From positions 3,410,001 through 3,474,000 of the forward strand of contig JANJGN010000053.1 in the NCBI GenBank assembly GCA_026770705.1: a DNA stretch of 64,000 nt, written 5' to 3'. The translations under genes and the position numbers were made by a program. Below the pieces are notes generated by a model. That model did no database searches and was not told the origin of the DNA. It saw only the letters and a program-made list of their open reading frames with translations. This stretch comes from Isurus oxyrinchus (lineage: Eukaryota). This document shows, piece by piece, positions 8,798 through 64,000 of the stretch. Every line of letters starts with the position of its first letter. Position 1 is the first letter of the stretch.

Positions 8798-11700
8798 TGT
8801 CATGAAACAATTAACGTAATTTTTCTGGAGCATATTTTTATTTTAAAATAAATGTTTACTTTGCGGGTGTGTCTTACATAGATTAAGGTTGGTAGCCTGG
8901 GTCCTTTGATGGACACTAGTGTTGTTATGGAAAATAGGTAGTGTGCATTTGGATTTTTAAGTGGAACATTCAAGATGTTCTGTGAAAGCTTGATGCCAAT
9001 CTAATAGATGCTAAGCCATATGTTTATATTAATAATAAAATTTTGTAGTAAATGGTTTCTTTCTTAAAAGGTGAAGTTGGAAAATGCTGGTCAGACAATG
9101 GAGATTTGGATTGAATCATTGGTGGTAGTTATAACTTTAGCAATTTTCGGGTGTACAGAGCAGTGGCAACGTGAGATCAAAAGGCAAGACTCCATCTCAC
9201 TTGAAAGGAACATCATTGTTAACCTTTAAATAGAAAATGCTTTGCCTGGTGTTCGGTTAAGTTTATGGGTGGCTTTTGCCTCAATGGAGGTTAGTTTGGG
9301 AATTTGTTAAATGTTTTGTTCATAGCCACGTGCATCTATTTAAAATGTATAAATTAATAAAATGTTTCAATTAATTTAATGTAACATCTCGATAACTGGT
9401 GGCCTGATTCCTAAATTTAGAGTTGCATCTCAAACATAACATGTACATGTATAGGTTATGACAACTGTTTAAAATTTCCCTCTGATTTTTTTTTAATTAC
9501 CCCGCTTTACTAACTGCATTGGGCAAAAAAAAATTGAGGATCGTCGGGCATACAATATAATTCTTATTCCTCGTTTGGTTACGATTTGGTGAATCTGAAG
9601 CTTACTAGCTCGAGAGGCACTTTGAATTCCAGAGTTAATGGGATAGCAGGTTATCTTCGGCAATTGCTAAAACATCTCTGGGACTAGAAGGGGGAACACT
9701 GATTGATTTGAAAAGAATAACCAGAATTAATTTAACAGAGTTGGCAGTTAAGTCATAATTGAGCTTACTTGTGGGGGCTAGGAAATCTGGTATAGTTAAA
9801 AGCATAGCACAACATCTACAGTTAGATGTTAAACAAGATGTGGGTCACAGCTGGAGGTGGTGAGGCTTCAGTTGCAAATGAAATAAAACACTTTAATTAG
9901 AAGCAAAGGATAGAGCAATGGCTTTTAAAAGGGAATTAAAAATGGTAAAGATGGGGATTGAGGAAATAGAAAGAGAGAGAAAAACAAAATTCCAAATGAA
10001 AACGGCAGTTAAAAAATTGATGTCAACAGGTGGGGAAGGATTTGTCTCCAGATTAGAACCCAGTAGGGATACGTTTAACTTTGTATAAGCTCTCCCAAAT
10101 CTTGAGGATAAAATGTTGAAGCATTCTTCATTTCGGCTGACAAGTTAGCTAAACAGATGAAATGGTCACAGGAAAACTGAACATTATTACAACAGTGTAA
10201 CTTCTAAGGTATTGGGCATCAGGTATATGATACGATTTAAGAAGAAATTTAGGTGAATTATGCGGTGATGAAAAAGTTGGTTTGATGACGCATGCGTTGG
10301 TTCATGAAGCACACAGATAGGAATTGACAGATATGAGATAACAACTTTCGGAATATTATATTTCGTTTGAAAGATTAAAAAAAAATAATTTTCAACATTG
10401 GATGAGTGCGTTAAAAATAGAGACAACCTATGCAGCACTTAGTGGAGTCATTCTTTTGGAAGAATTTAAATTTTCAATCTCTTCCTTATGAGAACTCCTG
10501 TGGAAGAACAGAGAATTGATTCTCTAAGACAATCAGCAGAGATAGTTGAGAATACAAATTAGTTTGTAGATCTAAACCTTTTCTCTGTCATCTTTTCAAT
10601 TTTTTTTAAAACGAGGAATGGTGAAAGGAAGGGAGGCAGTCCTTTAAGAGAGTGAGAAGCTGGAAGTTCCCAGGAAGTATTTTTAAGAACAAAATGATGA
10701 GAGCTGAAGTCAGAAGTGACATTCAGAAATTGAGGCGTTTTCAATGTAATAAAGTAGGACACAACAAGTCAGCGTGTTTCAAGAAAAATCTGCAATAATT
10801 CCTGGGGTGCAGAAAAGCTCTGAAACTAAAGGTACTGTGGGTTCTGAGGTTCAGGCACAGGAGAAACCAATGGTTTGTGTACATGTGTAACAGTGAGAGT
10901 CAGTGAAATATAAAGAATATGGATTGCGTTCACAGTTTACACAAGAAAATTCTGAGGAACAGGTTGCAGAAATGTTGAAAGATTTTTTGGGTGAAGAAAA
11001 AGTCTTTCCATATGTTAGATATTAAAATTTGAAAAGTCACAAAGACTAGTTAACTATTAATGTTTGTGGGATAGTGCTGTTTGTTGTTGACAGTGTGTTA
11101 CAGGAGAAGATAATAAATAGTGGGGTTCATGGAGACTCCAATTCTTTTCAGCGTGGAAGTAAATTTAAAGAGCAGATGGAAGGCGGGTGAAGTTATAGTT
11201 GGAGCGGTGGAAATATTGTCCATTACAGTGGTTCATTTTTGTCTGGACAATTATACAGCTGAAACGCAAATGCGTGTGCTTCCTATTGTAGTTTAGCAGC
11301 CTGCAGAAGTGTTTTCAACAGAAGTGCAGCAGAAGGAACATCCTTGATGATTTCGTGATTGTGTTATAACAGGATCCAAAGCCATTAGGGAAGAACAAAA
11401 GAATCAAGATAAGCAGACAGTTCAAACGCAATAAGAAGGTGTCGAAATCCTTTTAGCTGTAAGAGTATTGGATAATATTGTTCAAGAGGAAGGCATTCTG
11501 GAAAGTTCAGTTGAAATGTTTAAGTCAAGACGTTAGTGGAGTTACAGGAAAATTATTTGCAATTAAAAGAGTTTGATCAGAAAACTTATTCAGAAACCGA
11601 AGCTAAGGTTATTCCAGTATGTGATTATCTTCGAGAGAATATATTAATGAAAAAACGGAAGTGGAATCATGTCTCAGCAAATGAGAGTTGGAGGGATCTC

Positions 11701-14700
11701 CTTCAAATTGTTATCCCATTAGGTTATAGAAATGAGATTCTAAGGATTAATCATTAAATTCCAAAGGGGCGGGTGGTGTTGACGGGCGAGGGAAGGGTGG
11801 GGTGGGGGAATAGGCGCTGGTGCGAGTGGTGACATTTAGGAATCAGGAGAAAAACATGAAAATATAGAGAGGTTTTTTTTTCTTTTTTTGGCCAGGATTG
11901 CATAGAGACTTGGTTAAATTCTGTGGAAAGTGTCATATATGTGAAGTAACAGGAAAATAATAAATAGTGATTAAGCCTGCGACATTAAGCTGAATATTTG
12001 CATTTGGCGATTCTTTTACCAGCTTCATTATTGATTGTGTAGGGCAACTCACTAAAATTAAAAGTGGAAATCGTTTGGTTATTGACAATAATGGATCTGC
12101 CTGTTAGGTTTCCTGAAGTACATAATTTAAAAAATATTGCAACTAAGAAATTTGAGGAGGAGATAATTATTTGTTTTATCAGATACGGTACACTGAAGGG
12201 AAGACAATCAGATCAGGGGTAAAATTTCATGACACAACTTTTTACGGAAGTAATGAATAGTGTGGGGTAAAGTCAACAGCTTATCATCCAGATTCAAAAG
12301 GATCATTGGGAGGGTGGCATCAACTTTAGAAACTATGTTAAGAGCATACTGTCAGAATTATGCTCGGGATTTGTATGCGGGAATTCCATGTCAGTTACTG
12401 GTTATTAGCGATGCTTTGAATGGATCTGCTGGTTTGTGTCCATTTGAACACGTTTATGGTCATGAGGTAGGGGGACCAGTGAAATTGAATCATCAGAAAT
12501 TATTCAGTTAAAATTCAGAAACTATTCTCCTGGGTTACTTATCAAATCTAGGAAAATTTTGAGCATAACATGTGAGTTGTCCGGGGAACATTTAAAAGTA
12601 TGACAGCAAGAAATGAAAGTGGAAGCAAATAAGAAGGCTATGATTAGCAGTCTTGAACTGAGGAGAAAGTATTAGTTTTGCTTCCAGCACTAGGGGATTC
12701 CATAAATGCAAGATATATGGGTCCTTACAGAGTTGAAAATAACTTGAATGAAGTAAATCATTTACTAATTATTACAGATAGAAGAAAGACGCAGAGGGTA
12801 TTCATATAAATATGCTTGAGAAGTACTTCGAAAGGGAAGAGGAATAAAAAGAGCTGTTAATGATGGTGGATGATCAGATAGAGCTAGAGCTACATGACTC
12901 TGAAATCGATATCACTTTAATCAAATTGGATAAAGTGGGGATGCTTGAAAATTTATATGAAATATGAAGTTACCTTCCAAACAAATTTCAACGTGATTTG
13001 AAAAAGCTAATGCAGTCACACAAACATATTTGTGCAAATAGGTTGTGAAACGAACATTTAGCTACATTTGATGTCTCGGTGCACTTTCATCTTCAATAAG
13101 GCAACATCCTTACAGTTAAAATCCGACACAGTTATCACATGTACAATAATAAATTGATCTCCTGCTTTAAAATGATATCATTGAGAGTACTTGCAGTAAC
13201 TGTATTTCGCCCATTGTACTGGTGCCAAAACCAATTGGAAATCAAATTTTGTTTGTGGACTATTGACAGTGAGTTTGGTGCCTAAGGCAGACTCATATTC
13301 CCCACTACAGTTGGAAGTTTGCATTGAGAAAGTGGGACAATCGAAATTTAACACAAATATAGGCTTGCTCAAAGGATAGTGCCACGTGCCTTTGTGGCAT
13401 AGAGCAAAGGAGATATCAGTTTTTGTAACGCCAAGTGGACTAAGTTAGTTGAAAGTCATGCCATTTGGTATTTCAGAGACTGGCAAAGAAAGCCATAGCG
13501 GGTCTAAGCAATTGTGTTCATACTGATGATCTAATTGTTTTCAGACAGTTTTGGCAGGAACACTTACAGTATCTGGAAGAATTATTTACTCCACTACATG
13601 AAGCAAATTTGATTATCAACTTGGCTAAATGTGAATGTGAAAAAGCGCAAGTTACCCATCTAGGCCATGTCATTGGGAATGGTAGGGTGGCTCTGAGCGT
13701 TGCGAAAGTGAAGGTTGTCGTGAATTTCCCAGTGCCTACAACAGAACGAGAAATATTGAGATTTCTGGGCATGAATGGGTTTTACCGGACATTTGCACCC
13801 AATTATAGGCAAGTGGTTGCACGACAGATTGAACTATTTATAAAGAACAAGAAGTTTCAATGGACACTGGAGTATCAGAAGTCCTTCAATAGCTTGAAAA
13901 CTGTATTAATTACGGCAGTAATATTGGCAGCACACAGTCATGCCAAGCAATTCAAGTTGGCAGCTGATGCAACCGATATAACTATTGGGGTTTGCTCCTA
14001 CACAAAGATGGCACTGGAATTGAAAAACAGATAGGAAATTTAGATATTAACAGGTCGAGAACGATACTTTGAGTCTGGTGCTCGCATTGCGGTCTTTTCA
14101 AATTCATGTTGCAAACAATTCATCATAAACTATTGATTCAATGGAGCGTGCTGCGTTGAAGTTTTTGGACAAATGTCAATACAAAAGTTCAAAGCTTTTC
14201 AGATGGATCTATTATTACATCCGATTAATCTACACATTATACATATTGCTGGAAGGGAAAATATGTTCACAGATATCAAGAATTTAAAGCTTAAGATAAG
14301 TTGGGACATTAAAAATATCCTGGACACTGAACTAAGTGATTTTAGTTGATACCAAGTGCTTTTTAAAATACATTATTATGCTAATGCATGGATCGTGTAA
14401 TTTAATAGTATAATGAATAAAGGAGATAGTATGAAATGGGTCATTATGATATGGCTGTCTTTTTAGAATTATGGTGGCTCATCTTTCGCTTAAGAGGAGA
14501 ATGCCTTTAGATATTAATGTTTATAATATTTTGGAAAATATTTTTAATTTTGAATTTAAGTTTTAGTCTTCGGGTGTGTCTTAATTGGATTAAAGCCAGC
14601 TAGTCTGGGGTATGTGTGCTTTGATGGGAATTAGTTTTGATATTGAAGGGAGATAGCGTGCATTTCCATTTTTTGAATAGAACATTCAAAATATGGGGTG

Positions 14701-15190
14701 AGAACTTGACGGCTATCTAGCAGATGCCAAGCCATATGTTTACATTAATGATGAAATTGTTACTGTGAAAAGGTTTGATTGTTTGTCGGTGAAATTCAAA
14801 GAGGTTGGTCAGGCAATGATAATTTGTATTGAATAATTAGGGGTATGAAGAACGTCAGCTCTTTTCGGGTGAACAGAGCAGAGAGAATGTGAGATCAAAA
14901 GCAGCTGCAGGGCTCCAACTGGCTTCACAGTGAAAATAACCTCAATGTGAATTTGTATGGTGAACATGCTTTGCCTGGTGTTTGGTTAAGTTTTTGGGTT
15001 GCTTTTGCCACAATACGGTTAGTTTATAATTTGTTAAATGTTTTGTTAGTACTGAATTCTAACCATGAGTATATATCTTAATCTATGTTTATTAATAAAC
15101 TCTTTCAATTAATGTAATATTAAACCACAAGAACTGGTGGTCTGATTCCTGAATTTTGAGTTCCATCTCAAACGTAACACTTAAAATTAG
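8798..15190 (+). mobile_element. Gmr1-type Gypsy LTR retrotransposon 2 (near full length, decayed)
   Basis: LTR 8798 to about 9528 (TGTCATG...), degenerate Pro PBS at about 9534-9551, gag with FQCNKVGHNKSAC knuckle (about 10740), integrase 11700-12800 (IIDCVG, QSDQG, GPY), RT 13080-13850, RNase H to about 14280, PPT taagaggaga 14491-14500, 3' LTR from about 14502 to 15190 (3'-truncated). Confidence 0.9.
13465..14034 (+). pseudogene. Residual RT/RNase H reading frame of element 2
   Basis: HTDDLIVF (degenerate YxDD), INLAKCE, LGHVIG, RFLGMNGFYR, FKLAADA. Confidence 0.85.
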
Positions 15191-21000: not shown

Positions 21001-21960
21001 AATAAAAACAAAAAACTGCGGATGCTGGAAATCCAAAACAAGAAACAGAATACCTTGAAAAACTCTGCAGGTCTGGCAGCATCGGCTAAGAAAAAAAGAG
21101 TTGACGTTTCAAGTCCTCATGACCCTTCAGCAGAACTAAGTAAAAATAAAAGAGGGGTGAAATATAAGCTGGTTTAAGGTGGGGGAGTGGCGGGGAGAGA
21201 AGCGGGGGCGGGGGGTGATTGGAAGGACATGCAAGCAGTATTAGGAGCAGATAATCAAAAGACGTCGCAGACAAAAAAACAAAGAGAAGTGGTGATATTT
21301 TCCAGACGAATGTGCTAATAAAGAATGGATGGCGGGACACCCTGTACATCTCGAGGGGAGGTGGGGTGGAAAGTCTCACAGGGCATCAAAGGTATAGATT
21401 TAATAATATTGGAAATAGGTGGGAAAATAAAAATCTATATAAATTATTGGAAAAAAAAACTAAAGGAAGGGGGAAGAATCGTAATGTGACTGGGCATGAA
21501 GGAGGGATTTCAAGATCTAAAGTTGGTGAATTCAATATTCAGTCCAGACGTCTGTGAAGTGCCTAGTCAGAAGATGAAGTGCTGTTCCTCCAGTTTGTGT
21601 TGCGCTTCACTGCAACAATGCAGCAAGCGAAGGAAAGAGATGTGGGCAAGAGAGCAGAGTGGAGTGTTAAAATGGCAAGTGGCAGGGAGCTTTGGATCTT
21701 TCTTGCAGACAGACCACAGGTGTTCTGCAAAGCGGTTGCCCAGTTTACGTTTGGTCTCTCCAATGTACAGGAGACCTCATTGGGAGTGACGAATGCAGTA
21801 GACTAAGTTAGGGGAAATGCAAGTGAAATGCTGTTTCACTTGAAAGGAGTGTTTGGACCTTGGACTGTGAGGAGAGAGGAATTGAATGGGCAGGTGTTGC
21901 AGCTTTTGCGTGAGCATGGGGAGGTGCCCTAGGTTGGGGTTGAGTTGTAGGAGGAAAGAA
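21001..21960 (-). mobile_element. Young Penelope-like element 3' part with GIY-YIG endonuclease remnant
   Basis: Minus strand SFQVKQHFTCISPNLVYCIRHSQ*GLLYIGETKRKLGNRFAEHL (21715-21850); terminus shared with the insertions at 34044, 48700 and 58165. Confidence 0.85.
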
Positions 21961-32960: not shown

Positions 32961-34043
32961 TTAATGCAGTGCTGCACCTGTCAAATACGACCATGTTTTT
33001 CCTGTGGGACCTGTCATTGTATGAACGTATTCAATGCGGGGCATCATATTACACTTGCTGTAAGTAGAGCTGATGACGATGATTCTGGGTGCTGAATAAT
33101 CTCCATCGCTGTACACAGTCCCAAGAGCCACTGGGAAATTAGAATAATGTTTTAATGAATAATATTTCCATTATGATTATAATTAGCTAATACCCAATTG
33201 CAGGTTTTACAGCACAGTAACGAGGCTCTCAGCCAATCTTCCTGCTGGAGACAAACCCTACCCTTCTGCAGGTCATCGGAGACTATCAGTATAATCTTCG
33301 ATTCCTGTTTCCCTCATACTCAATTAACTTCATCGTAAATATCATCTCATCCACTCCACGTGGTCGCAATTCCATATTCTCAACGACATTAAAGTATATC
33401 ATTCTCTTTTCAGTATTTTCATGGATTTATTGCCGACTGCCCTGCATTGAGGTGAATGAGAATTGGACACACACACATGTGTCACAACTATCCTATCCTC
33501 ATTAGCCTCTGTTAATTTAATGGCCTCCATTCAATAGCCCATAAGCATTCTCTTATCCACAGGATTAAGGCATAACAATTTCCACAATGCTAATCTGTTT
33601 GTTTCCGTATTACCTTTGGACAGAATGTCGGCAGCTGATACATGGAGTTGTGATTCTGTTATGATCGGCCAGAACCTAACATATGTGTGAAATTCGCTAT
33701 TACCTCCATTCTATAAACAAACATATGTTTTAGTTCTTTTAGTGATCTTCCAGTTGAATTGAATGCCTGCTTTCTGATCGCATGTGCACCAACTCCATAA
33801 ATACCCTTCTATACATAATAATGTGATACATCTTTAGCTCCGGTACCCAAATTACGTGGAGTGGTCTGAGACAAATGTGAGTCTCCTGTATGAGGGCATT
33901 GCTCACACCTGAATGATGAGTTTCCTGCAGAAGGCTGTGATCCCAAACTGGGATGACTCTTTACACTGAGAGTTGTCGGAGATCACATAACGATGTCCAG
34001 TATACCCATTTTGGTTACTCGTGAACAACATTTAAGATGTCAA

Positions 34044-34300
34044 AACAAAACTGCGGATGCTGGAAATCCAAAACAAAAACAGAATTACTTGAAAAACTCA
34101 GCAGGTCTGGCAGCATCGGCGGAGAAGAAAAGAGTTGACGTTTCGAGTCTTCATGACCCTTCGACAGAACTTGATTAATGACTATCCTTTCAATTTGGCT
34201 CCTTTGCAATGCTTATTATTTCTGTAGGCTTACAGGCTTTCATCTTACATGTCTCAAATCAAGTTCTGTCGAAGGGTCATGAAGACTCGAAACGTCAACT
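34044..34300. mobile_element. Fold-back PLE-terminus insertion with 79-bp captured filler
   Basis: 15-bp TSD catttaagatgtcaa (34029-34043, 34301-34315); inverted arms 34132-34176 / 34257-34301; filler 34177-34255 identical to 35333-35411. Confidence 0.92.
34262..34300 (+). ncRNA. Minimal type I hammerhead-ribozyme-like motif of the PLE terminus (non-canonical core)
   Basis: AGTT-CTGTCGA-A-GGGTC(atgaa)GACTC-GAAAC-GTC-AACT: stem I, stem II, GAAA box and GUC site. Also at 34133-34171 (-), 21098-21137 (-), and 49655-49694 (+, GUC mutated). Confidence 0.6.
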
Positions 34301-34502
34301 CATTTAAGATGTCAACCTGGCTCCTGGAAGTAATCTGCTGCTTGGCTCAGAAACATATTTGTTACACCTGGTTTGGATGCTGGCTGAAGTCACGGTCGAG
34401 TTAAGCCTAACCACTGCCTTGCTACCAAATTCGTGCTGCTAAAATCCAATCTACCTGGACTCGGAAACGGAAAGAGTTCATCAGTAACCGCCCATCTCCG
34501 TC

Positions 34503-35006
34503 AATTGTGATCTTGTCCTATGGAAAGTGCCGGCTCTCCACCAGCGATACTTGCTACGCTGTGGTAATGGCACAAACAGAAGCCCTCATCATTATTTCAG
34601 TGGTTATGCTAAACCGAATCAATGATTATAGTGTCCCGCTCAATTTCCTGAAAATTACGCGTGTGCAGTGTTCGCTACACCTTGTTTCTTGCAACCACAG
34701 ACTGTACTGCTTGGTTAACTGTCACTTTCAATTTTGATCGATTCGATGTCATATGTTGCCAGAAGTTGAAATCTCAATATTGGACCAGATAAACTGCGGC
34801 TGTCGGTCTAGAAGCAGATAGCATTCCGTCCTGCTTAAAATAACCTTTCCAACCTAGGTTAGGTTTAACTATTATTGTTATCGGCAGCTCAGTTTGCCGT
34901 TGTTCTAAAAATCCAAGCTACTTTAATGATGCATGATCAGTTGCTTTTATGATCTTCGAAAAAAAAAACCGTATTGCTTCCAATCGGGTTAATTCCATTG
35001 TTCAAC
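34503..35006 (+). pseudogene. GPR139-like pseudogene 2, 5' part
   Basis: IVILSYGKCRLST...LNFLKIT...ATTDCTAWLTVTFNFDRFDVICCQKLKSQYW...LPIGLIPLFN with stops and frameshifts; cut by the LTR at 35007. Confidence 0.85.
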
Positions 35007-35759
35007 TGTTATAACACAGCATTTGGTTAATACCTTTATTTGAAACCCCAGAGGTAAAATGTATACAACTACCATAGCCTATACATTCAATTGGTATGTT
35101 GAATATGCATCTTTGATTTTGGAAATGAACCCACGAAGCCCCAAGAGGTGTGGATATCAAACTAAATTATATATTTATTTATTTACAACAGGTTATGAAA
35201 TACATACATATGTCTACAAATTACAACTATCACAATTTCTAAACAAATTCCCAAATTAATCTCCACTAAGGCACCTGTAATCAATAGACTTAACCAGACA
35301 CCAGGTAAAGCATTTTCACCTTATTGTATCAAAATGACTATCCTTTCAATTTGGCTCCTTTGCAATGCTTATTATTTCTGTAGGCTTACAGGCTTTCATC
35401 TTACATGTCTCTGCAAAGCACACAGATACCGTTCTCTAATAACGATCCTTTCCTTTTGAATGTAAATTTCCATTGATTCACCAGGTCCTTTGATCCCCTA
35501 TCATTGTATTAGCTTTATTAATAACATAAGCATTGCTTGGCATCTCCTAGCTGCGTGCAAGAATACACACCCATTCCTGAATGCTCCATTCAACAAAATC
35601 TAAATGAACACTCTACCTCTACTTACGGCTCAAAAATTACTATACATATAAGTACCTAGACGAGTTGTCTTTAATCCAGTTAAAATTCGCATTGGCCAAA
35701 CATCTACTAACAAAGAAAATTTCCAATATTATTATCTGCATGAATATCACTTCCTGACA
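35007..35759 (-). repeat. 3' LTR of element 3
   Basis: Homologous to 45164-45890, 56577-57396 and (reverse) 8798-9528 / 14502-15190; adjacent PPT. Confidence 0.85.
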
Positions 35760-38700
35760 TCCCCATTCCTATCGAAAAATGAACAGTCAGCATCCTAAAG
35801 GAAGTTTCCATTTTTTTAATAAACCATCTCACACTATGTCCCATACTTATTAGCCTATAATATTACCAGACGCATGCATTAAAATAAGGCACCGTTCCAT
35901 TGCAATGACCATGTTTTTGAAAATCCACAATTTTCCTTTAAGATTAAAACGCAGGTCCTCCACATGTATAATCCGTAGAATAAATGGTTGTAATAATAAT
36001 CTCTTCGTACAAGGTCTTGCACTTTTATCACAAAATTTCTCCAAATCTTCATGGGATTGTGGTCTAGATAAATAATTGTTTCCAATGAATTGCTTGCAAC
36101 ATAAATTTCAAAATGCTGCGTTGCCAGCATTATTGAACTCTATTTCTATCGTTGACTATCGGCTATGTTGCACGTCCAGCTCCTGTGAAAAAAATATCCT
36201 ACCGATTTTACAATTCCAATGTTATAAAGTTGTAAACGTACAGCCATAGTGCCTATATCGCTTGCATCAATGGCGAACATAAAGTGGCATAATTGGGTAC
36301 TTCCAAACTTGATGTCATAGTTAACACGTAGCTTTCGAACTACTCAATGACTTCTGACACACCAATGTCCATTGAAATTTCCTGTTCATTTATGATAATG
36401 CAGCCAGTGGAGCAACCACTCGGCTAAAATTTGACATAAATTTACCGTAAAACCCACTCATGCCCAGAAATATCATAAATTCTTGTTTTGTCGGAGGTAC
36501 TGGGAAATCCACGATATCCTTGACGTTCACATTACCTGAGAGCAACCTTACGATTTCCAATGATATGTCCTGGATGCTTAACCTGCACTTTTGCAAAATC
36601 ACTTTTAGCCGAGTTCAACGCCAAGTGAGCTTCTTATATTCGAGTAAATATGTTTTCCAGAGGGGGTGAATGTTCTAAATACAAACGTTTAGATCATCAA
36701 TAAAAACAACACAATTGCTTAGACCCGCAATTAATTTGTTTGTCATTCTTTAAAATGTCACGTGTGTATACTTCATAACAAATGGCATGACCTTAAACTG
36801 GTGTAGTTCACTTGATGTTACAAAGGCTCATATCCCTATTGCTCTCTCTGACAAAGGTTGCTGCCACTTTCCTTTAGCAAGCCAAGCTGTGTGATAAATT
36901 TCGATTGCCCTACTTTCTTAATACAATCTTCCAACCGTCGTGTAGGATATGAATCCGTTTTTGTCACCACATTCATCTCTCCATAGTCCAGAGAGAGTCA
37001 TAGTTCTCCAACTGGGTTCTGTACTAATGGATTAGGTGCACTCCATTTAGTGCAACTAGACTCACATATATAGCTTTGAAGCACAAAAGTAAGATATTTT
37101 TTGTATTTGAGATAACTTTGCCGGATTTAATCTATAAGGATGTTGCCTGATTGAAGAAAGAACTTGCACTGAGGCATTAAATATAGCAAAATGCATGTTT
37201 CCCAAATTCTTTCCACAAATACACATCTGTTACTGCAAAATAATTTCCAAACCACTTTGACACTTGTTTGGAACGTAACTAAATAGTTCATTAAAACTTT
37301 CAAGCACCCCCTCATTTTCTAATTCGATTAGAGGAAATTTAATTGCAGAGACCTGCAGTTCTAATTGTTCTTCTTCAGTCACCATCAAAAATAGCTCTTT
37401 TTGTTCCTCTTCCCTGTGAAAGCACGTTTGAAGCATATTTTCGTGTCCGACCCTCTGCTTTTTGGTTATATCTGGAGTATGTATTAAATAATTTCCTTCA
37501 ATCAATTTCTTTCCGATCCTGTAAGGCCCAGTAAATCGTCCATTTAATGAATCAGTTCGCAATTGTAACTGAACTAGCACTTTCTCTCCAGAAGAAAAAC
37601 TGTGTGGTTTAGCCTGCTTATTGGCCTTCACTTTCGTCAATTGCTGTGATATGTTCAAATGTTTCCTCGCCAACTCACATGCTCTGTTCAATCTTTCCCT
37701 GAAATCTTATGTAATCCAGAAAAATATCTTTTGTATTTGACCCATCAATTTTTCATGAATCAGCTTCAGTTGCCCCTTACCTTAGAGGCATACATTAGTT
37801 AAAAAGGGCTGAAACCAGTCGATGCATTTGGAGCGTCTCTAATAGCAAGTAAAAGGAATGGAATTCCTGCATTCCAATCCTGTGGATAATTCTCACAATA
37901 TGCCGTTCTCATTGTCTTTAGAGTTTGAAGCCATCTCTCAAAAGTTCCCCGTGATCCCGGAACTAAACTGTTGACTTAAACTGTTGAATCCCCAAATTGT
38001 TCATTTTTTTTTCACGAAAGAGCTGCGAAATTAAATTTGAAGACTTATCTGATCGCTTTTTTTACCTACACCCTACACCATAACATGCAAAAATAAAAAG
38101 TCCTCCACAATCCTCTGAGTTGAAATATTTCACAATCGTTTCAGGAAATCTCGTAGATACATTGATTATTGTCAGAAAATACTGATTTCCACTTTTGAAC
38201 TTAGAAAAGGGTCCTACAAAATCAATTGTAGCCCATGTAAAAGGTTATTCAAACGGTGGTATAGGGATTAAACGCACGGCTTTAATCACTGCTTGACATT
38301 TATAACAGGTTCTACAGAATTTTAATACATCCCTATGCAAACTGGGCAAAAATGTAAAGGCAATGGTTCGTTCCCTGTGTTTTCCTAGTTCCTAAATTTC
38401 CACACATTGGAATTTGGTGACATTCCTCAGAATCTCGTTTTCTTTTACCCAACTGGGATGATAACCTGATGAACTTCAACGCAGTCTTCATTTGCTAAGA
38501 AATAATCCGACTTCTGCTTTTACATTTAGATATCTCCCTAAAGATAATAACATATTGGAGTACAGTTTGCGTCTCTTTCTGCATAGACTTTCTGATATAA
38601 CTCCTTTATTTGTAAATCCTTTATTCTGTAACTTCACTAACTTCGTTGAGTTAAACACTTCTGTTTAACGGTCCTGCCTTCTTTCCTCCAGAAAAATGAT

Positions 38701-39642
38701 ATCAAATACAGTGTCAACTAATTCGATTTGGACATCTTTTAGCTTTTGAACTGCTTGCCCTTCGTGTGCGACTCGCTCTTCCCAGTAAGATTTTGACCTC
38801 GTTACAACACAATCAGGAAAGAATCCAGGATGTTCCTACTGTAACAGCTCTGTTGGAAATAATTATATAGGTTGCTCAAATTCTATAGGCATCAACCACA
38901 TTTGCGATCCAGCTCTATAGTTGCACATGTTGGCCACTGGCTGCAGCTCAACTGCCAGACACAGGCAAAAGCAAATTTTGAACTGAAGTATCTTGAGTCC
39001 AGTTGCTGGCCTGAGTAACTTTTCAAATCTGACTCCAATCACTGGGTCCGAACTGGTTAGAACCACTTTCAAAGAAGCTGAGTTTCATCAAGACAATGGA
39101 AATGTGATGCGTCCATATTTAGAAACAGAGAAACGAGATAATCCTTCAAGTCTTGGAACAGCCAATAGAGAAGATGCCAAAGATCAGAAAAGCAGACCAA
39201 AACCAACGGGAAGAGAGACAGAACAGCTTGAAGATATACAATTCAGTGTAACACCGAGAGGACTTCGGGCATCGGGCAGCGAGACTCTGGAGACCAACCA
39301 TGGCAGAAGTGAGGGAAACTACATCCGCAACGTTGAGATGCACGGGAGAGAGAAGGGAATGCCTGGCCAGCATCAGCTCTCCTTTTCGGATACTAGCTTT
39401 TATATTCTGTGACCACTCAGGGAGTGTCAGAGAAACCTAGTGTATGAGTGTTTAGATCCTAGTTCTGAGTATAAAACTGTATAACCTGCTGTAAACTGTA
39501 TGTCTATATTTAAACAGATGTATGAATTGTGTGTAGATGATCTAAAGACGTGAATAAGCACGTTCAAAGTTAAGAGAGAATTCGCTCTACTCCGCTGTGT
39601 ACTAAGCCATTAACCATTACCGGTGACCTCCTGCAACATGTT

Positions 39643-44417: not shown

Positions 44418-44873
44418 TTGGATACCTTCACTAAACAGGTGGAAGCTTTTCCGAACAGAACAAACACAGCCAAAATTACTGCAATTTTTTTTTTAGGGAA
44501 GGTGTTTACATGCTGGGGTTTACCTGGAGACAGAGAATTGCATCAGGGAACATGTTTTACAGCCCAAGTAATGCACGATGTTATGAATCTTTTTGGGATC
44601 AGGCAGAGATTCCACATACCCTATAGACCACAGTCTAGTGGAATTGTGGAAATTCTGAATCGGACATTGAAGAACATGCTAGCCAAAATGGTGCAGCAGC
44701 ACAAGACAAACCGGCAGGTTGTTCTGCCCTATGTGCTGATAATAATCAGGAATACCATGGCTTCAACAGGATACACTCCTTATAGGCTTATGACAGGTAG
44801 GGACATGAGGGGATTGGAGGGGTTGGTAGATCTGGATTTGGACTCAAGAATGAGGTTGGTTGATGCAAACTAA
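44418..44873 (+). pseudogene. Provirus integrase catalytic core remnant
   Basis: DTFTKQVEAFP...WGLP....HQGTCFT...YRPQSSGIVEILNRTLK...TGYTPY.LMTGR. Confidence 0.85.
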
Positions 44874-45163
44874 TCATTACTCGTTGTCCGGGGCTCAACT
44901 CTGTCAGGCTAGCTTTTGCATCGAAATAAGCCTTGCTTTGCTGTTTCTTCTTTCCCTGTCGGTGAGCAATTACATAATTTGCTTCTTGTACAGTTTCTAC
45001 TAGTTGTTGTACCCATTTTACTAAAATAATGTGTAAACACTTTCTCTAAAATAAATTTCGCAATAATTTTGGATGTGTTTGATCTGGTCGGAAAAGCTTC
45101 CACCCACTTAGGTTGACCACATTATATCAGACAAAATTGCTGTATACCCCAACAGTTCAAAAT

Positions 45164-45890
45164 TGTTATGCCATAGCAGTTTTAAAAGACTGTTATTTAA
45201 AATCCGAGGGGACAACTTCCAACAACCGTCATAACCGATGTTTTCAATTGGAATATTTGATATGGAACTCTGAATTCATAAATGAACCAGCCAAACCCCC
45301 AGACGTCTCTATATCAAACTAAATTAAACTTGTATTGTTTTGCAAAAAGGTATTAAACACATACACATGTCTACACATTTCTATTTTAAATTTTAAACAA
45401 ATTCCCAAGGAAACAATAACCAATAGACTTAAGCAGAGACTAGGCGGAGCATTTTCACCAGACGAATTCGAAATGTAGTTCCTTACAGTTTGGTTCCAAT
45501 ACTAACAGTTTTAATCTTACAAATTTTCAACTTACACGTCTCTGTGATGCACATGGGTACACCCTTCTGCTAAACCTAGCCTTTCTTTCTGAATGCAAAT
45601 TTTCATTGTATGACCAGGCCCTTTGAAATCCGTTCATAGCTCCATTGTCACCAGTAATAAAAGGATTGCTTGGTGTCTTCCTAACTAGATGCAAGATTTT
45701 ACCGCACTCTTGAATGTTCTATTTAGCAAAATGCAAATGTATCCGACAGCCCTGTTTACATCTGAAAACTACGGTACACCAAAGCACCCAGCCTCGCTGG
45801 CTTTCATCCAATTAGCACACACAGACTAATACTCGATTAAAAATGTTAGAAAAACTCCAATTATATTATCATTACTTCCTCTTCCTGACA
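45164..45890 (-). repeat. 5' LTR of element 3
   Basis: tgttatgcc...cttcctgaca, colinear with 35007-35759. Confidence 0.85.
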
Positions 45891-47676: not shown

Positions 47677-48699
47677 GCCGCATTCTGTACCGTCTTGCCT
47701 CTCCCTACTTTTCATTCTCGAAATTTCTAATTCTTCCCCTCTTTCTCCCATTCCAATCGCACCCTTTGTCTCTTAATGTCTGTCATATTATTATTTTTTT
47801 TTCCTTTCTGTGATTCTCCCACTTTTGCCCGCGCTTTAGTTTTACTTTTCACAGTCTCTTAATTGAATTTTCCTTATTTCTCTTGCTTAATATGTATCTA
47901 TATTTCTGGGTGTTCATGTCTCTCCGTCAGGTTCTCGCTCCCTCCCTTACTTTTCTCTCCCCTCCCTGCCTCCACCCCTCCCCACGAACCCCCCTCCCCC
48001 CGCACACGCACACATACACATTTTCTTCGCCTCTCTATTTCTCACTTTCTCGTTCTATTTCTGCTTATCTTCGCCAATCTCTATCTATCCCGATAACCCA
48101 TTAATTTTCCACTTCTCTCAGTCCCTCTTCCTCGTTCTTCAAAACGTCGAGCACTTACCCATCTCTGATTCTCACCGCTGTTCCACCTCTGCCACCTTCC
48201 CCTTCCTTCGATTTTCCTCAGCCCTCTCCCTCTGTCCCTGGAGGGCTCTTTTCACCAACTGCCGCACACCTCCCAACTGTCTTAAACTTTATCCATTTCC
48301 ATCTCCGAATCTTTCTTCTTCCCTAATTTCTCTGTTCCTGAATCCATTTGCCACCAGTCTAAATCGCTCGCCACTACCTTTCTCTCCTGCATCTGTCAAC
48401 CTCCCTTTGTGATTATTCCCCTTAATCCCGTCCTCCGTCGTTTTCTTTCCCCAATACCTACCCTGCTTCTTGCTTACACACTTTTCATTTTCCCTCTCTG
48501 CCTCTCTCTGCCCTTTTATCCAAAAAATACCCTTCACTTGTTTGAACAAGATCAGCTTTACACTATTATCAATGGTTTTTGGAACCCCCGATCAGAACAT
48601 AAATACCTCATGGTCTCTCCCACCTCTCCAAATCGAACACATCAAAAGGGAAGCAACATTTATGGCCATCCATCACTTGCCAAACCATTTCAATATCTG

Positions 48700-49794
48700 A
48701 AACAAAAACAGAATTACCTGGAACAACTCAGCAGGTCTGGCAGCATCGGCGGAGAAGAAAAGAGTTGAAGTTTTGAGTCCTCATGACCCTTCGGAGAACT
48801 TGATTTCGATCCAAGAAAGAGTTGAAATATAAGCTGGTTTAAGGTGTGTGTGGGGGGGGGCGGAGAGATAGAGAGAGAGAGGTGGTTGTGTGGACAAACA
48901 AGCAGTGATAGAAGCAGATCATCAAAAGATGTCAGCGACAATGGTACAATAGAACACATAGGTGTTAAAGTTAAAGTTGGTGATATTATCTAAACGAATG
49001 TGCTAATTAAGAATGGATGGTAGGGCACTCAAGGTACAGCTCTAGTGGGGGTGGAGGGAGCATAAAAGATTTTAAAATATTTAAAAATAATGGAAATAGG
49101 TGGGAAAAGAAAAATCTATATAATTTATTGGGGGGAAAAAAGGGGGAAACAGAATGGGGGTGGGGATGGGGGAGGGAGCTCACGACCTAAAGTTGTTGAA
49201 TTCAATATTCAGACCGGAAGGCTGTAAGGTGCCTAGTCCGGTCTGAATATTGAATTCAACAACTTTAGGTCGTGAGCTCCCTCCCCCATCCCCACCCCCT
49301 TTCTGTTTCCCCCCTTTTTTTCCCTATAAATTATATAGATTTTTCTTTTCCCACCTATTTCCATTATTTTTAAATATTTTAAACTCTTTTATGCTCCCTC
49401 CACCCCCACTAGAGCTGTACCTTGAGTGCCCTACCATCCATTCTTAATTAGCACATTCGTTTAGATAATATCACCAACTTTAACTTTAACACCTATGTGT
49501 TCTATTGTACCATTGTCGCTGACACCTTTTGATGATCTGCTTCTATCACTGCTTGTTTGTCCACACAACCACCTCTCTCTCTCTCTATCTCTCCGCCCCC
49601 CACACACACACCTTAAACCAGCTTATATTTCAACTCTTTCTTGGACTCGAAATCAAGTTCTGTCGAAGGGTCATGAGGACTCGAAACTTCAACTCTTTTC
49701 TTCTCCGCCGATGCTGCCAGACCTGCTGAGTTTTTCCAGGTAATTCTGTTTTTGTTTTGGATTTCCAGCATCCGCAGTTTTTTTTTTTTGTTTT
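48700..49794. mobile_element. 1.1-kb palindromic (fold-back) young PLE insertion
   Basis: Arms 48700-49218 and 49237 to about 49757 are near-perfect reverse complements, 18-bp spacer, 14-bp TSD catttcaatatctg (48686-48699, 49795-49808). Confidence 0.93.
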
Positions 49795-50274
49795 CATTTC
49801 AATATCTGTCTTGTTTTGGGCATTGATGCTCTATCACATAACAATGGGGTAGATATGAATTTACCAGGAAGTCAGGGCAACATCGTAGGCCTCAATTATA
49901 TTTTTTCCTCCCATTTGCACCCGCATATATTTCGTGTCAAGATCTAATTAATTACAAGCGAGGGCCTGTATCGGATCCAATGATATTTTTGCCTATTAAT
50001 GTATGATGCAATGCTTGGTTTTTTCCCTGGTGATGAGATCATCCCACAAATCTTTGGTAAATAAGGGTGGAAACTCTGAATGCCGTTGCCTAAATCTTCC
50101 AATGTTTCTACAGGCTGGGCTAGAGGACAGGAGAAATGCAACACCTGTTTGTTTACTCAAAATAATAAAAAAAGTTGTTGCACGTAATGATAGTCCCAGG
50201 ATGTTTGGCCAATCAGCTCAACCTCAATAGGGGGAACACTTTAGGAAGAATAATTCTGTCCAAATGCAATATTT

Positions 50275-52574: not shown

Positions 52575-52935
52575 CGTTGGAATGAATTGGCTGTCTTATG
52601 AGGAAAGGTTAGATAGGCTACGCTTTGTTCCACTGGATTTCAAAACTTTGACAGTTTCTAGATTGAGGTACGTATGATCCTGAATTTCCTTGATGCCATG
52701 GATGTGGAAATTATTCCCCCTCTTTGAGGGTGAGACCAAAGATAGGGGGCATTGTTTTACAATGAAGAGTCGCCTTAGAGGACAGAGAGGAGGAAGTTTT
52801 TTTTTCTCTCTCAAAAGTTTGTGTGACTTTGGAATCACTGCCTCAAAAGGCGACGGAAATGGAGCAATGAATAATTTTAAGGCAGAGGGAGATATATTAT
52901 TATTAGGCAATGGAATCAAAGGTTATTGCAAAATA
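52575..52935 (+). mobile_element. CR1 LINE 3' fragment
   Basis: LSYEERLDRL, LFPL.GETK.RGH, FK.E.D motifs. Confidence 0.7.
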
Positions 52936-52944
52936 CTGTGGATG

Positions 52945-55165
52945 CAGGAAATCTGAAATAAAAACAGAAAATGCTGGAAATACACAACAGTTTTGGCAGT
53001 ATCTGTGGAAAGGAGAAGAAAGTTAACATTTTGATTACAGCTGACTCTCCTTAAGAGCGAAAGGTAAATAGAAATGTGATCGAGTTGCTACAATGAAATA
53101 GGGGATGGGGCAGGTGGAGCAAGGTAGAGGTTCAGGGACAGGTGACTGCTGAGAAGAGATTGATGCCAGAGAAAGACAAAGTGATTTGATTGAATGGACG
53201 TGAGACAAAGGGAGTGTTAATGAAAATGTGAAAGAGTAAAGACTGTGCCGGGTTTGGCATAAAGGTACAAAAGGTGAAGCTGTTAAGAGCAGAACAGGGT
53301 TCAGTGCTCTGTGAAAGAATTACATAGAAACAAGAGAAGGCTCTTTGGGGCAGGGAGGCTGCAAAAAAGAATTAAAACTGAACAAAAATAACATGAAAAA
53401 AATAAAAATTATGCTGCCATGAATACAAAAATTAATTCAATAGGTAAATAAAAGTTCTATTTTTGAAAGTTGGTCAAGGTGGAGGAGGTCAAAATCATTG
53501 TTACGTCCACGAGGCTGTAACGTGCCTAATTGGAAGATGTGATGTTGTTCCTCCAGTTTCTATTGGGTAATAATGGAAGTCGGAGCAGGATCTGGAAAAA
53601 GATGGATTTTGCTTTCAATTTACATCCCTGTTTCATCTTCACGTCGCCCATCTGTGACATTTTCCTTCCCATCTTTGACCTCTCTGTTTCAATTCCTGGT
53701 GATAAGATGTCCACCAACATTCATTTCAAGTCCAATGACTTCCACAGGTACCTCAACTATAGCCGCTGACATGCTACTTCCTGCAGGGGCTACATTCCGT
53801 TCTCTCAGTTCTACCAATTCCACTGCATCTGTTCCAATGATTCTGCCTTCAATAATGGCGCTTGCCTCATGCCTTCCTTCTTCCTTAACCAATGTTTACA
53901 TCACGATGGTTGAAAGTGTCATCAACAATTTCCGACTCATCTCCCCCAACTCTGCCTTCACTATTACCCCTCCTTGCCGGAAGCATATAAGAGCCCTCGT
54001 TGTCCTCACTTGTCACCCCATCAGGTTTGATATTTTATTTGATAGCGTTTCGGCCTCCTCTATCACAATACCAGCACTAAGCATATCTTTCCCTCACCAT
54101 CCCACCCCATCCCCCCGCCCTCTCGCCAACATTGGCACGGTGACAACCTGGTCCAGTCCTCCATCACTCCTGAAACATTATCCCCTTCCCAGAGCATCTT
54201 CCCATGCAATCACAGAAAATGCAAATCCAGCCCATTTAGCTCATCTCTCTTCTTAATACACAACCTCAAGGATTCCTTTCAGGTGAAGGAGCACTTCACC
54301 AGCTCTTCCTTCAATTTGGGCAGCTGTATTCGCTGCTAGAAAAGTGGTCTTCTCTACTTTGGAGAGATTAAACGCAGAATTGGTGACCGATTTGCATAAT
54401 GCCTTGGCTCATTTCATGTGCATGACACATAACTTTCTGCCGTCTGTCTTTCAACACACGACCTTGCTCTCATCACAGTTCTACATTCTCGGCCTGCTTC
54501 AAAGTTCTGGCGAAGCACAATGGAACCTGAACAGACAAAACCACACTTTCCGATCAGCAGCTTTTCAGTCTTCCAGAATTAAATTTGAGGTCAATAACTT
54601 TAGACCATACCTTTGTCATCCATCTTTACGTCTTTTTTATACATTTCTTTCTTTTTTCCAACATTTTAACTTTTATTTGTTTTGTTTAAAAATGTATTAA
54701 TCTATTTTTTAGCCATTTTACGCATCCCACCACATCCAGTGACCCTCACCCCCAAGCCCATTGTGCCACCTATCACTTGTCTTCATGTTGTGATTTCACA
54801 GAGCTCTGACCCTTGCTTTGCCATTAACACGTTCTGGCCTTACTTAAATGCGACAACCAACACCTTATTTAGTGTTTTCCACTACTTTTAACACTCACTA
54901 TGTCTTGTGTCTGTATCATTTCTGTCAATTTTTCCTTAGCTGTCACCAAACCCTGACTTTCATTCTTGTTCCACCTGCTCCACCAGCTCTTCAACAACTT
55001 AAAATCCAACACATTTCCCCTCCTCTTATGTACAAAGAAGGGTCATACGGACTCGAAAGTTTAATTATGTTTCTCCCTCCAGAGATGCTGCCAGATCTGC
55101 AGTCTTTTCCCAGCATTTTCTCTTATCATTTCCGATTTCCATCATCAGCGCATTTTGCTTTCTTT
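52945..55165 (+). mobile_element. Older family A PLE: inverted 5' terminal copy (52945 to about 53560) plus RT C-terminus, GIY-YIG and 3' terminus
   Basis: FAFNLHP..FT...LPIFDLSVSI...TNIHFKSND.HRYLNY; SFQVKEHFT...CIRC..SGLLYFGEIKRRIGDRF (about 54275-54395); terminal motif in opposite orientations at both ends. Confidence 0.8.
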
Positions 55166-56576: not shown

Positions 56577-57396
56577 TCTTATGGCACTGCAGTTAGTAAA
56601 GATTGCATTGTTTAAATCCCGGAGGGAAACTTGAACAGCTATCATAACCTATATTTTGAATAGGTATTTTTCAGATGCAGTACTGAATTCATGAATAAGA
56701 CCATCAAGCTGCAAGAGTATTTTTAATGTAAAACTAAATTAAAAGTTTGTTAAATTAACAACGAATTAAACAAATAAACATGTCTACAAATTACTAGCGT
56801 AATAATGAAGTTAAAAGAATCCCTACAACAATAACTACCACGTAAATCTTCACAGAGGCAATAAGAACAGATAGATTTTAAATAGACACCATGCAAAACA
56901 CATTTGACCTTAAAAAATCTAAATTAGGTTCATTTCAATTTGTTTCCTTTTCAGACAGAGTTGTGCACTTACAGACTGATTAGATCTGAAATGTCACTGA
57001 CAGATGCAAACAAACACCTTTTTGTCTAGACCGAGCTTAATCTTTGAATGTAAATTTTCTATTGTAATGTTTAAAAAAGAAACCGCTCTTAGAAATATTC
57101 TTTTCATTCCATAAATTTAATTTGTGATATAAACACATTGCGTGGCGTTTCCCGGCTTGGTGCAAGATTTTACATATTCTTTTGAATTGTTTCTTCAACT
57201 GATGCAAAGTTATGCTTTACTTTCTACACCTCCCGTTTACCATAATGACACCCCAACCTACTATGCATCTAAGCAACCAGGCTAGCAGGCTTTAATCCAA
57301 TTAAGACCCACAGAGCCAAACAGAGGCAGGCTAAAAAAAAATCCAATTTAAAATAATTTCCAATTCCAGTATAGAAAATAATATTTCTTCATGACA
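56577..57396 (-). repeat. Solo LTR of the element 2/3 family
   Basis: tcttatggcac...ttcatgaca, homologous to 35007-35759; TSD gtaag/gtagg (56572-56576, 57397-57401). Confidence 0.8.
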
Positions 57397-57449: not shown

Positions 57450-58770
57450 ATTCCTTGCATAAGCCTCAGATATACGAGAAAATCAAGTTTCCCACAATAA
57501 TCTAAGGCAATCAGAGAATGCCTGTCAGCAACTTCACCACCCGAGAAAGAATTGTGTGAGAGACTGGAAAGATAAAAGGAACTGTTTAGAATTCGAGCAA
57601 AGAAGGAGAGTGTTATAGGAAGAAATTGAGGGTGGAAGACTTTAGTAGCTCCTATAGCCTTACGAACTACAAAATTGGACAAATCACAACTTCGTTAAAA
57701 TGTACTCAGTCACCTTTTCCATCATGCAGCCTTGATTCTGAAATCGGACGCACTAAAGCTACCCTGCACGACAATCGGAACTTTGCTCATTGTGTGCTAC
57801 TCAACATCATGAATTGTACAAAGGTAAGCACTTTTATTCCTGACAAGTTCTCCGTCTACGTCAAATTCCCCTTGGAGTGCAAGGTGTCTCAAATATTTGA
57901 GCAGCGGGCAAAGCAAAAAGTATTTTTTCACTGTGGTAGTGCAATAGTGGCACAGTGTTGCCAACAAGCGAAAATATGATCTTCTTACCACACAAATTAG
58001 TAACGTGCTGGATGAGTTCCATAGTTTCTATGATTATTGCTTTCTAGGCGATATGTCCCAATGACTGGTGCATCGTTTCAACAACAGTTCAATTCTATTG
58101 CTTCTACTGACCCGACTCAAGCACCCCGTTTTTGTAAAACACAGGAGAAACAATCAAACTTTAAAATAAAAATTAAAAAACTGCGGATGCTGGAAATCCA
58201 AAACAAAAACAGAATTACCTGGAAAAACTCAGCAGATCTGGCAGCAGACCTGATGAGTTTTTCCAGGTAACTATGTTTTTGTAATCAAACTTTAAGTGTG
58301 ATTCAGCAATTGGGGAGACTTACATAACAATCTCCAGTGTATTGAGATTTACACTCGCACTCAATATAAGATTAACAAACGGCTTGCAGTCAGGCTCACT
58401 CACATTTGCTAGTACCCTTTTATGCAGCATTCAGACGCAAGGCATTGTCCCATGTAAATACAATAACATGCCCAGTCACTGCGCCTTATTTAAGTAAAAG
58501 GATTGGGGTTCAAAATTTCCTTGGAACATTCTTAATGCCAAAACATCGAAAATATTAACCGATTTGCCTGCATTGAATTTAAAGAAACGATTGAGCATAT
58601 TTGTTGCTTGTGCATTGCTCATGAAAACACCTCAAGAAATCAATGTCCGCTTGCCAACCAATCAACATTATTTTTCAAGCATATAAATTATTGTTACATT
58701 TTAAATTTGGAATTCTAATGGATACTGTCCTGATGACTGAAAACTAAAAGCTTCCACAACATGTTTATCT
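57450..58770 (+). mobile_element. Penelope-like element family B, decayed
   Basis: SYSLTNYKIG...SCSLDSEIGRTKATLHDN..., VYVKFP, TTQISNV; homologous to 23400-24350; hammerhead-like remnant ctgatga...aaaagctt at about 58728-58755. Confidence 0.7.
58165..58282. mobile_element. 118-bp fold-back young PLE-terminus insertion
   Basis: 13-bp TSD aatcaaactttaa (58152-58164, 58283-58295); the sequence reverses on itself at about 58241. Confidence 0.9.
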
Positions 58771-63289: not shown

Positions 63290-63467
63290 AACTAAAAGGA
63301 AAATATTGTGAATGCTGCAAATCTGAAACAAAAACAAAAAAGCTGGAAAATTCCAAAGCTCTGAGGAAGGATCTTACAGTCTCGAAAGATTGACTCCCTG
63401 CTTTTTTTTTTCTCTCCACAGATGCTTCTAGGTCTGCTGAGATTTCCAACATTTTCTGTTTTTGCAC
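63290..63467. mobile_element. Old inverted (fold-back) PLE terminus
   Basis: gaatgctgcaaatctgaaacaaaaac...gctggaaa joined to ctctgaggaagga...cgaaa...ctccacagatgc...ttccaacattttctgtttt. Confidence 0.6.
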
Positions 63468-64000
63468 TTGACACTTCTAGTTCAACAAAGCAGGTCAGCC
63501 AATAGACTAAAACATGCACTGGTAAAAGAGCAGACCGAAACATATATAGAAACAATCCAAAATAATATAATATCCGAATGAGCAGAATCCCAGAGGACCT
63601 GCCTAGAATTCATGTTAAGTCATCCATGTCGCCAATGTAGGCAAACAAGAAATTGTTTTGGGTTTTTCGGTTTTTTTTGTGCACTATAGTGTGAATTTGT
63701 GAAGCATCTTTGTGGCGTTGGCGACGTCAGCCAGGTTCGCAGGCATTGATTGCGTTCATCAGTTCCATGATGTTGCACGCTTCTGTGGTGTCACACAGAT
63801 CTAATTGTTCGGCGATGTCAAACCACAGGTTTGGTGAACAGGAACAATAATGCCAAATGTCAATTTAACACGAGAATTGTTTGATGGGATTTGCTATTCA
63901 GATGACAGGAATGGTTGTCAAATTGCACATAAGTGGAACATCACTGAGAAAGTAAAAAAAATAAATTTGATTAAAATGAGAGTTTTAAAATGTGGCAAAA

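Follow-up and report, generated by a model that had tools for sequence, protein, structure and literature searches.

In the present study, an insertion of a Penelope-like element (PLE) has been characterized at positions 34029-34315 of the window (the whole stretch of DNA analyzed, 64,000 nucleotides), and its two inverted arms are separated by a 79-nt filler identical to part of an old LTR nearby. We consider it rather probable that this is a young, 5'-truncated PLE insertion in which both target strands primed cDNA synthesis and a repair patch bridged the resulting flaps. The structure itself is, with high probability, real as assembled. The insertion and the donor of the filler comprise the following features.

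34029-34043, no strand assigned: left TSD of 15 bp, CATTTAAGATGTCAA, with a second copy at 34301-34315
34044-34176, minus strand: long arm, the PLE 3' end of 133 nt (part of the pLTR plus the tail), 90% identical to the copy at 21.0k
34177-34255, plus strand: filler of 79 nt, a direct copy of 35333-35411 by sequence identity
34256-34300, plus strand: short inverted arm of 45 nt, ending before a T-rich tract
34301-34315, no strand assigned: right TSD, the first base of which is common to the element (1-nt overlap)
35010-35759, minus strand: 3' LTR of a decayed LTR retrotransposon, 750 bp, with TG...CA ends and an adjoining purine tract
35333-35411, plus strand: donor of the filler, inside the old LTR and colinear with four LTR paralogues

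The 15-bp TSDs, the PLE 3' terminus on the minus strand, the 79-bp filler and the inverted PLE arm were all found where the original prediction had placed them. First, the filler (34177-34255) and 35333-35411 are identical at 79/79 positions and form the longest exact direct repeat within the 64-kb window; elsewhere in the window, no exact word of the 79-mer, which is AT-rich (63%), recurs beyond a length of 12 nt. Second, the inverted arms (34133-34176 and 34257-34300) are alike at 44/44 positions, and the short arm starts one element base further upstream than the end of the long arm. This extra A at 34256 is the next base of the element, as reads leaving 34176 go on with T (agreement 0.95). 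The other end of the short arm falls about 90 nt short of the 3' end of the long arm. Third, no exact microhomology was observed at the filler joints on either side, the right joint having only an offset 3-nt match. The variant shared by both arms is private within the window, as had been claimed: both arms have A, and G is found at 49.7k, 48.8k and 21.1k, the three close arms or copies covering the site. The distance of about 1.15 kb previously given to the donor holds as the start-to-start distance in the filled allele (1156 nt); before the insertion, 1018 nt separated the target site from the start of the donor.

Copies at 21.0k, 48.7-49.8k and 58.2k share 90-96% identity with the PLE end of the insertion. 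The 21k copy, which is 90% identical to the long arm, runs into a frame with an LYIGETKR-type, GIY-YIG-like motif.

21570-21776, minus strand: putative remnant of a GIY-YIG endonuclease, seen in the translation of a longer copy from the same PLE family, with a Pfam PF01541 match (E 0.073) that falls short of the curated cut-off

No ORF is present in the studied insertion, and no intact RT was found in the PLE copies of the window. An inverted, 5'-truncated pLTR with a one-sided tail of 30-40 bp is the canonical layout of EN+ Penelope-like insertions (PMC3846280; PMC8557442). The one-sided tail offset is 37, 37 and 29 nt in three further fold-backs of the window (B, E and F, described below), and the 34k insertion (A) is likewise inverted, with an offset of 90 nt. 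The targets are AT-rich and the TSD length is variable (15, 14 and 13 bp in A, B and E). The family is very abundant, with a raw read depth of about 59,000 compared with about 1 on the flanks. The assignment of the insertion to the Penelope-like elements, as originally proposed, is well supported.

A degenerate motif resembling a minimal hammerhead was discerned by eye in the long arm (about 34168-34133), with core-like words, helix II and a palindromic helix III. The fold z of this motif is 0.13, and an Rfam search gave 0 hits, including for the motif. The core-like word is CUGUCGA in both the 34k and the 49.7k copies (34161-34167, minus strand) and departs at one base from CUGANGA, which we take to be the hammerhead core. 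The ribozyme of this PLE subfamily may be weak or dead. Minimal hammerheads have been described in pLTRs (PMC4209133). Formation of the short-arm end by hammerhead cleavage was ruled out, as the arm extends 4-5 nt beyond the predicted site.

Sister fold-backs of the same family

Together with the 34k insertion, four compact fold-backs were compared, the other three being as follows.

48686-49808, no strand assigned: fold-back B, same PLE family by sequence comparison, with a 14-bp TSD and arms of about 520-560 nt
58152-58295, no strand assigned: fold-back E, with a 13-bp TSD and arms of 82 and 36 nt, the tail-less arm nested in the tailed arm
63296-63470, no strand assigned: older fold-back F, with a tailed arm of about 52 nt and a tail-less arm of about 109 nt, no TSD being seen by eye

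In three of these four fold-backs, element sequence was observed on the tail-less arm only, amounting to 1 nt in A, 18-21 nt at the center of B, and 77 nt in F; in all three, each arm carries element sequence that is absent from the other. The tail-less arms end at -20 (B), -22 (E) and -23 (F) from a landmark, three of the four lying within 3 nt, and the tailed arms end at +6 to +17. The short arm of A ends at -83, where it stops before a T-rich tract at which the target end matches 4/5 bases. The TSDs of fold-back B and of the 34k insertion start with the same five bases. The pair at 52930-55165 is not among the four compact fold-backs, as it spans 2.2 kb, both ends are tailed, and no TSD was found; it is an old, diverged PLE whose two ends point outward, and decayed sequence of the endonuclease region lies at about 54.2-54.6k.

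Joints were also surveyed in reads from four of the 24 listed sequencing runs, mapped to the reference 33300-35332, which stops just before the donor, with about 4 in 100 of each raw run being read; this reference reveals only joints near the 34k spot. Among the 15 joints shown (of 833), 12 depart from perfect mirror symmetry by 6 nt or less, and some occur in 16-25 contigs. The 12 fillers shown, out of 360, are 1-3 nt long. The fold-back form is therefore routine for this PLE family, and the long, mappable filler is the unusual part of the 34k structure.

Routes to the fold-back and its filler

Herein, we propose a sequence of steps to describe the formation of the 34k insertion. First, the GIY-YIG endonuclease would cut both target strands 15 nt apart. 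The top-strand 3' end would prime reverse transcription at the tailed 3' end of the element, giving the 133-nt cDNA (34044-34176), and the bottom-strand 3' end would prime internally at a U-rich tract (primer end AAATG, template-equivalent AAAAG), giving 45 nt. The endpoints of the two cDNAs would differ by no more than 1 nt, and the simplest reason would be that both reached the 5' end of a single truncated RNA. Because two same-sense flaps cannot pair, such flaps would usually be joined at short palindromes, which would yield the routine fold-back of the family, and only rarely through a patch. At 34k, one flap would have picked up a 79-nt direct copy of local DNA before it was joined and filled in. 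Such an orientation fits a top-strand flap that primed on the bottom strand laid bare by resection at the right-hand end, the side on which the donor lies.

Priming of cDNA from both target strands is favored by the sequence confined to the tail-less arms of A, B and F and by the clustering of the tail-less ends in B, E and F. An anole PLE protein, for which a dimeric form is predicted, was found in vitro to cut both strands of the target and to extend each of them, with synthesis beginning at two sites on either side of the 30-40 nt tail (PMC11167929); the asymmetry of the tail-less arms and their clustered ends fit this chemistry. In direct-repeat templated insertions, one broken end copies the other, resected end (PMC7165422). 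Several points weaken the proposal. At 34k, the evidence against a single folded cDNA is one base, which could be untemplated, and the short arm of A ends at -83, away from the tail-less site. Later deletions at palindrome centers could mimic the asymmetry of B and F, and the near-perfect symmetry of many joints is a prediction of self-priming (PMC3846280). In a more general form, which we put forward tentatively, a dimeric PLE enzyme would prime two overlapping cDNAs from one RNA, on both strands and with staggered starts, and host end-joining would close every fold-back, sometimes copying DNA about 1 kb away.

The original prediction held that synthesis passed from the element to local DNA and then back to the new cDNA. 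In this alternative, which we regard as unlikely, one cDNA would switch to local DNA, copy 79 nt, fold back, copy 45 nt of itself and join the second target end. The identity of the arms, their common variant and their meeting within 1 nt agree with such an event, fold-back E fits it through its nested tail-less arm, R2 joints include a class formed by snapping back onto the cDNA or onto target DNA nearby (PMC11371274), and self-priming has been proposed for PLE palindromes (PMC3846280). The shared A variant fits two cDNAs made from one RNA or source equally well. A folded cDNA is expected to give an inverted arm lying wholly inside the first cDNA; this holds in E and fails in the other three, by 1 nt in A (a weak departure), 18-21 nt in B and 77 nt in F. 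The long arm offers no template for the extra element base of the short arm, and re-entry would have had to hit the precise end of the old cDNA with no complementary bases to guide it. B and F could not arise in this way unless deletion followed, and the tail-less ends of B, E and F lie within 3 nt of each other. A return to the new cDNA is thus not favored, given the extra base, the lack of exact microhomology, and the asymmetry of B and F.

Somewhat less likely again is a route in which two cDNAs were made and the RT of the element itself produced the filler, through an end-to-end jump onto a local RNA (an LTR transcript, minus strand) or onto a released single-stranded fragment. This route is retained as an alternative because Pol theta does not typically copy tracts of this length or from this distance and exact microhomology is missing at both joints; moreover, the polarity agrees with the top-strand cDNA having used a sense transcript of the LTR as template, a nearby pre-mRNA was once co-inserted with L1 (PMC10191854), and R2 proteins jump between templates (PMC11371274). 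However, the LTR is old, with 65-71% identity to its paralogues in the window, and a free fragment would have to stem from this very locus.

The structure was also compared with known systems. The tail-out inverted arms, the TSD, the tail on one arm and the palindromic joints are shared with canonical EN+ PLE insertions (PMC3846280; PMC8557442), and host DNA captured between pLTRs has been described in rotifer PLEs (PMC3846280). In contrast to the canonical form, the captured DNA lies here in the fold joint, is 79 nt long and has a donor mapped 1 kb away, whereas the excerpts of the PLE papers map none; in addition, the short arm at 34k stops about 90 nt in and not at the tail boundary. With regard to L1, non-element local templates of <250 bp have been reported in 22 cases of a cohort, typically at ≤15 bp from the site (bioRxiv 10.1101/2024.08.27.596794), local fold-backs were reported together with the one co-inserted pre-mRNA (PMC10191854), and templated genomic inserts are also known (PMC11702581). 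Twin priming of L1 resembles the proposed priming from both target strands in that both target ends prime cDNA, and an SDSA-like route has been proposed; however, the L1 arms overlap briefly (median duplication 22 bp), whereas the short arm here repeats the long arm fully (bioRxiv 10.1101/2024.08.27.596794; PMC10191854; PMC11702581). For R2, the cDNA end likewise primes more synthesis on itself or on nearby target DNA before joining, but there is a single priming site and no recurring second start site (PMC11371274). The Pol theta direct-repeat class shares the direct orientation, the AT-richness, the scarcity of primary microhomology and a donor across the break, whereas its tracts are rarely >10 nt and mostly come from within 30 bp, compared with 79 nt at 1018 nt here (PMC7165422). 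The 34k filler accordingly differs from the short tract with a donor within about 30 bp that marks Pol theta products; it is identical to pre-existing DNA near the site, as in locally templated insertions at retrotransposon joints.

Among the reports listed in searches of the open-access literature, none traces a filler in a PLE fold joint to a local donor and none applies twin priming to PLE inversions, and the excerpts of PMC9977147 hold no mention of fillers. Publications already exist on the inverted arms of PLEs as well as on retroelement joints with locally templated patches, and the surprise of the 34k structure was overstated in the earlier reading. The single event at 34k changes little, because similar patches have been described for L1 and R2. 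The steps that finish PLE integration and form the inverted arms were left unvalidated by the in vitro study (PMC11167929). The 34k locus and its neighbors offer a cheap genomic test of how PLEs finish integration, based on arm-unique sequence, tail-less ends and filler sources, and such an abundant family should supply many joints for it. If priming by a dimer on both strands is correct, the 34k locus would preserve, as a fossil, resection of at least 1.1 kb in the course of PLE integration, and small local duplications would arise steadily from the family.

The donor LTR

The element carrying the donor is a decayed LTR retrotransposon that, from profile hits, we take to be Gypsy-like. A weak Integrase_p58_C hit was observed at 37233-37706, and the profiles RVT_1 and RT_RNaseH_2 gave hits in a related element at 9-15 kb. 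The two decayed retrotransposons (8817-15179 and 35010-38923) are about 69% identical and lie in opposite orientation, and more LTR copies occur at about 45.2-45.9k and 56.6-57.3k. A 73-bp inverted match of 86% between 44438-44510 and 45032-45104 seems to represent the integrase regions of two opposed LTR elements meeting, and not a fold-back.

The 79-mer is alike at 52/79 and 51/79 positions to the LTR paralogues at 45472-45542 and 56922-56997, and at 37/79 and 42/79 to those at about 9.2k and 14.9k. These four diverged, colinear paralogues in the window agree with the claim that the donor is an old decayed LTR, and the colinearity rules out copying from the filler to the donor. The further argument that such divergence points to a local template stands within the window (37-52/79) but is incomplete: the raw-read depth is about 35 in the filler bin (organism A) and 470-490 in the adjoining LTR bin, compared with 0-2.6 on the flanks, and the filler-bin depth implies that closer partial relatives of the 79-mer (≥90%) exist elsewhere. 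The short LTR segment 35272-35332 stands at about 470-490-fold raw depth, far above the neighboring LTR bins, and is thus conserved across many family copies.

The template of the filler was very probably the local LTR, to the right of the insertion and 1.02 kb from the cut. It is highly improbable that a near-identical LTR copy elsewhere served as template, or that the 79-mer traveled with the flank of the source element. The raw depths just given speak for a template elsewhere; against it, the identity to the copy 1 kb away is 79/79, and in organism B, a relative, a 485-nt contig carries the 79-mer unbroken with 2 differences at single-copy depth (19.2 compared with 17.5). Only one of the 8 longest pieces listed for organism B (shortest 71 nt) covers the 79-mer, and we infer that this contig is the orthologue of the donor. 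Reads leaving the element at 34176 go on into element sequence, which argues against carry-over of a flank.

Other animals, age and assembly support

An empty-site allele, which was to be sought in relatives, was found exactly in organism B, where contig 9 spans 33300-34028 and then 34301-35265 at consecutive record positions, with no letters between. The flanks of organism B diverge from the window by 4.3%, and none of the 138 duplicated positions differs (95% upper bound 2.1%). This empty site, together with the 0/138 differences (<2.1%) against a flank divergence of 4.3%, bears out the view that the insertion is young.

That an assembly or polishing error placed nearby sequence in the hairpin loop is very doubtful: among the pieces listed from the four runs (about 4 in 100 read) no read or contig spans either filler joint, and assemblers have trouble with hairpins (PMC8557442), but the TSD is exact, the relative has an exact empty site, the arm geometry resembles hundreds of read-supported joints, and there is no obvious way for an assembler to set a 79-nt copy between two arms without overlap.

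The contigs of organism A differ from the window by 1.4%. One of them breaks at 34043; in the one that follows, 15 letters ahead of 34301 are unplaced, consistent with a 30-nt overlap of an empty path. The break may mark the branch to the filled allele. A contig of organism A passes 34301 unbroken, and the filled right joint was not seen there. At 33776-34971, single reads from one sample of organism A show two haplotypes that differ at several sites, one of them window-like, and the window haplotype might perhaps segregate in this organism.
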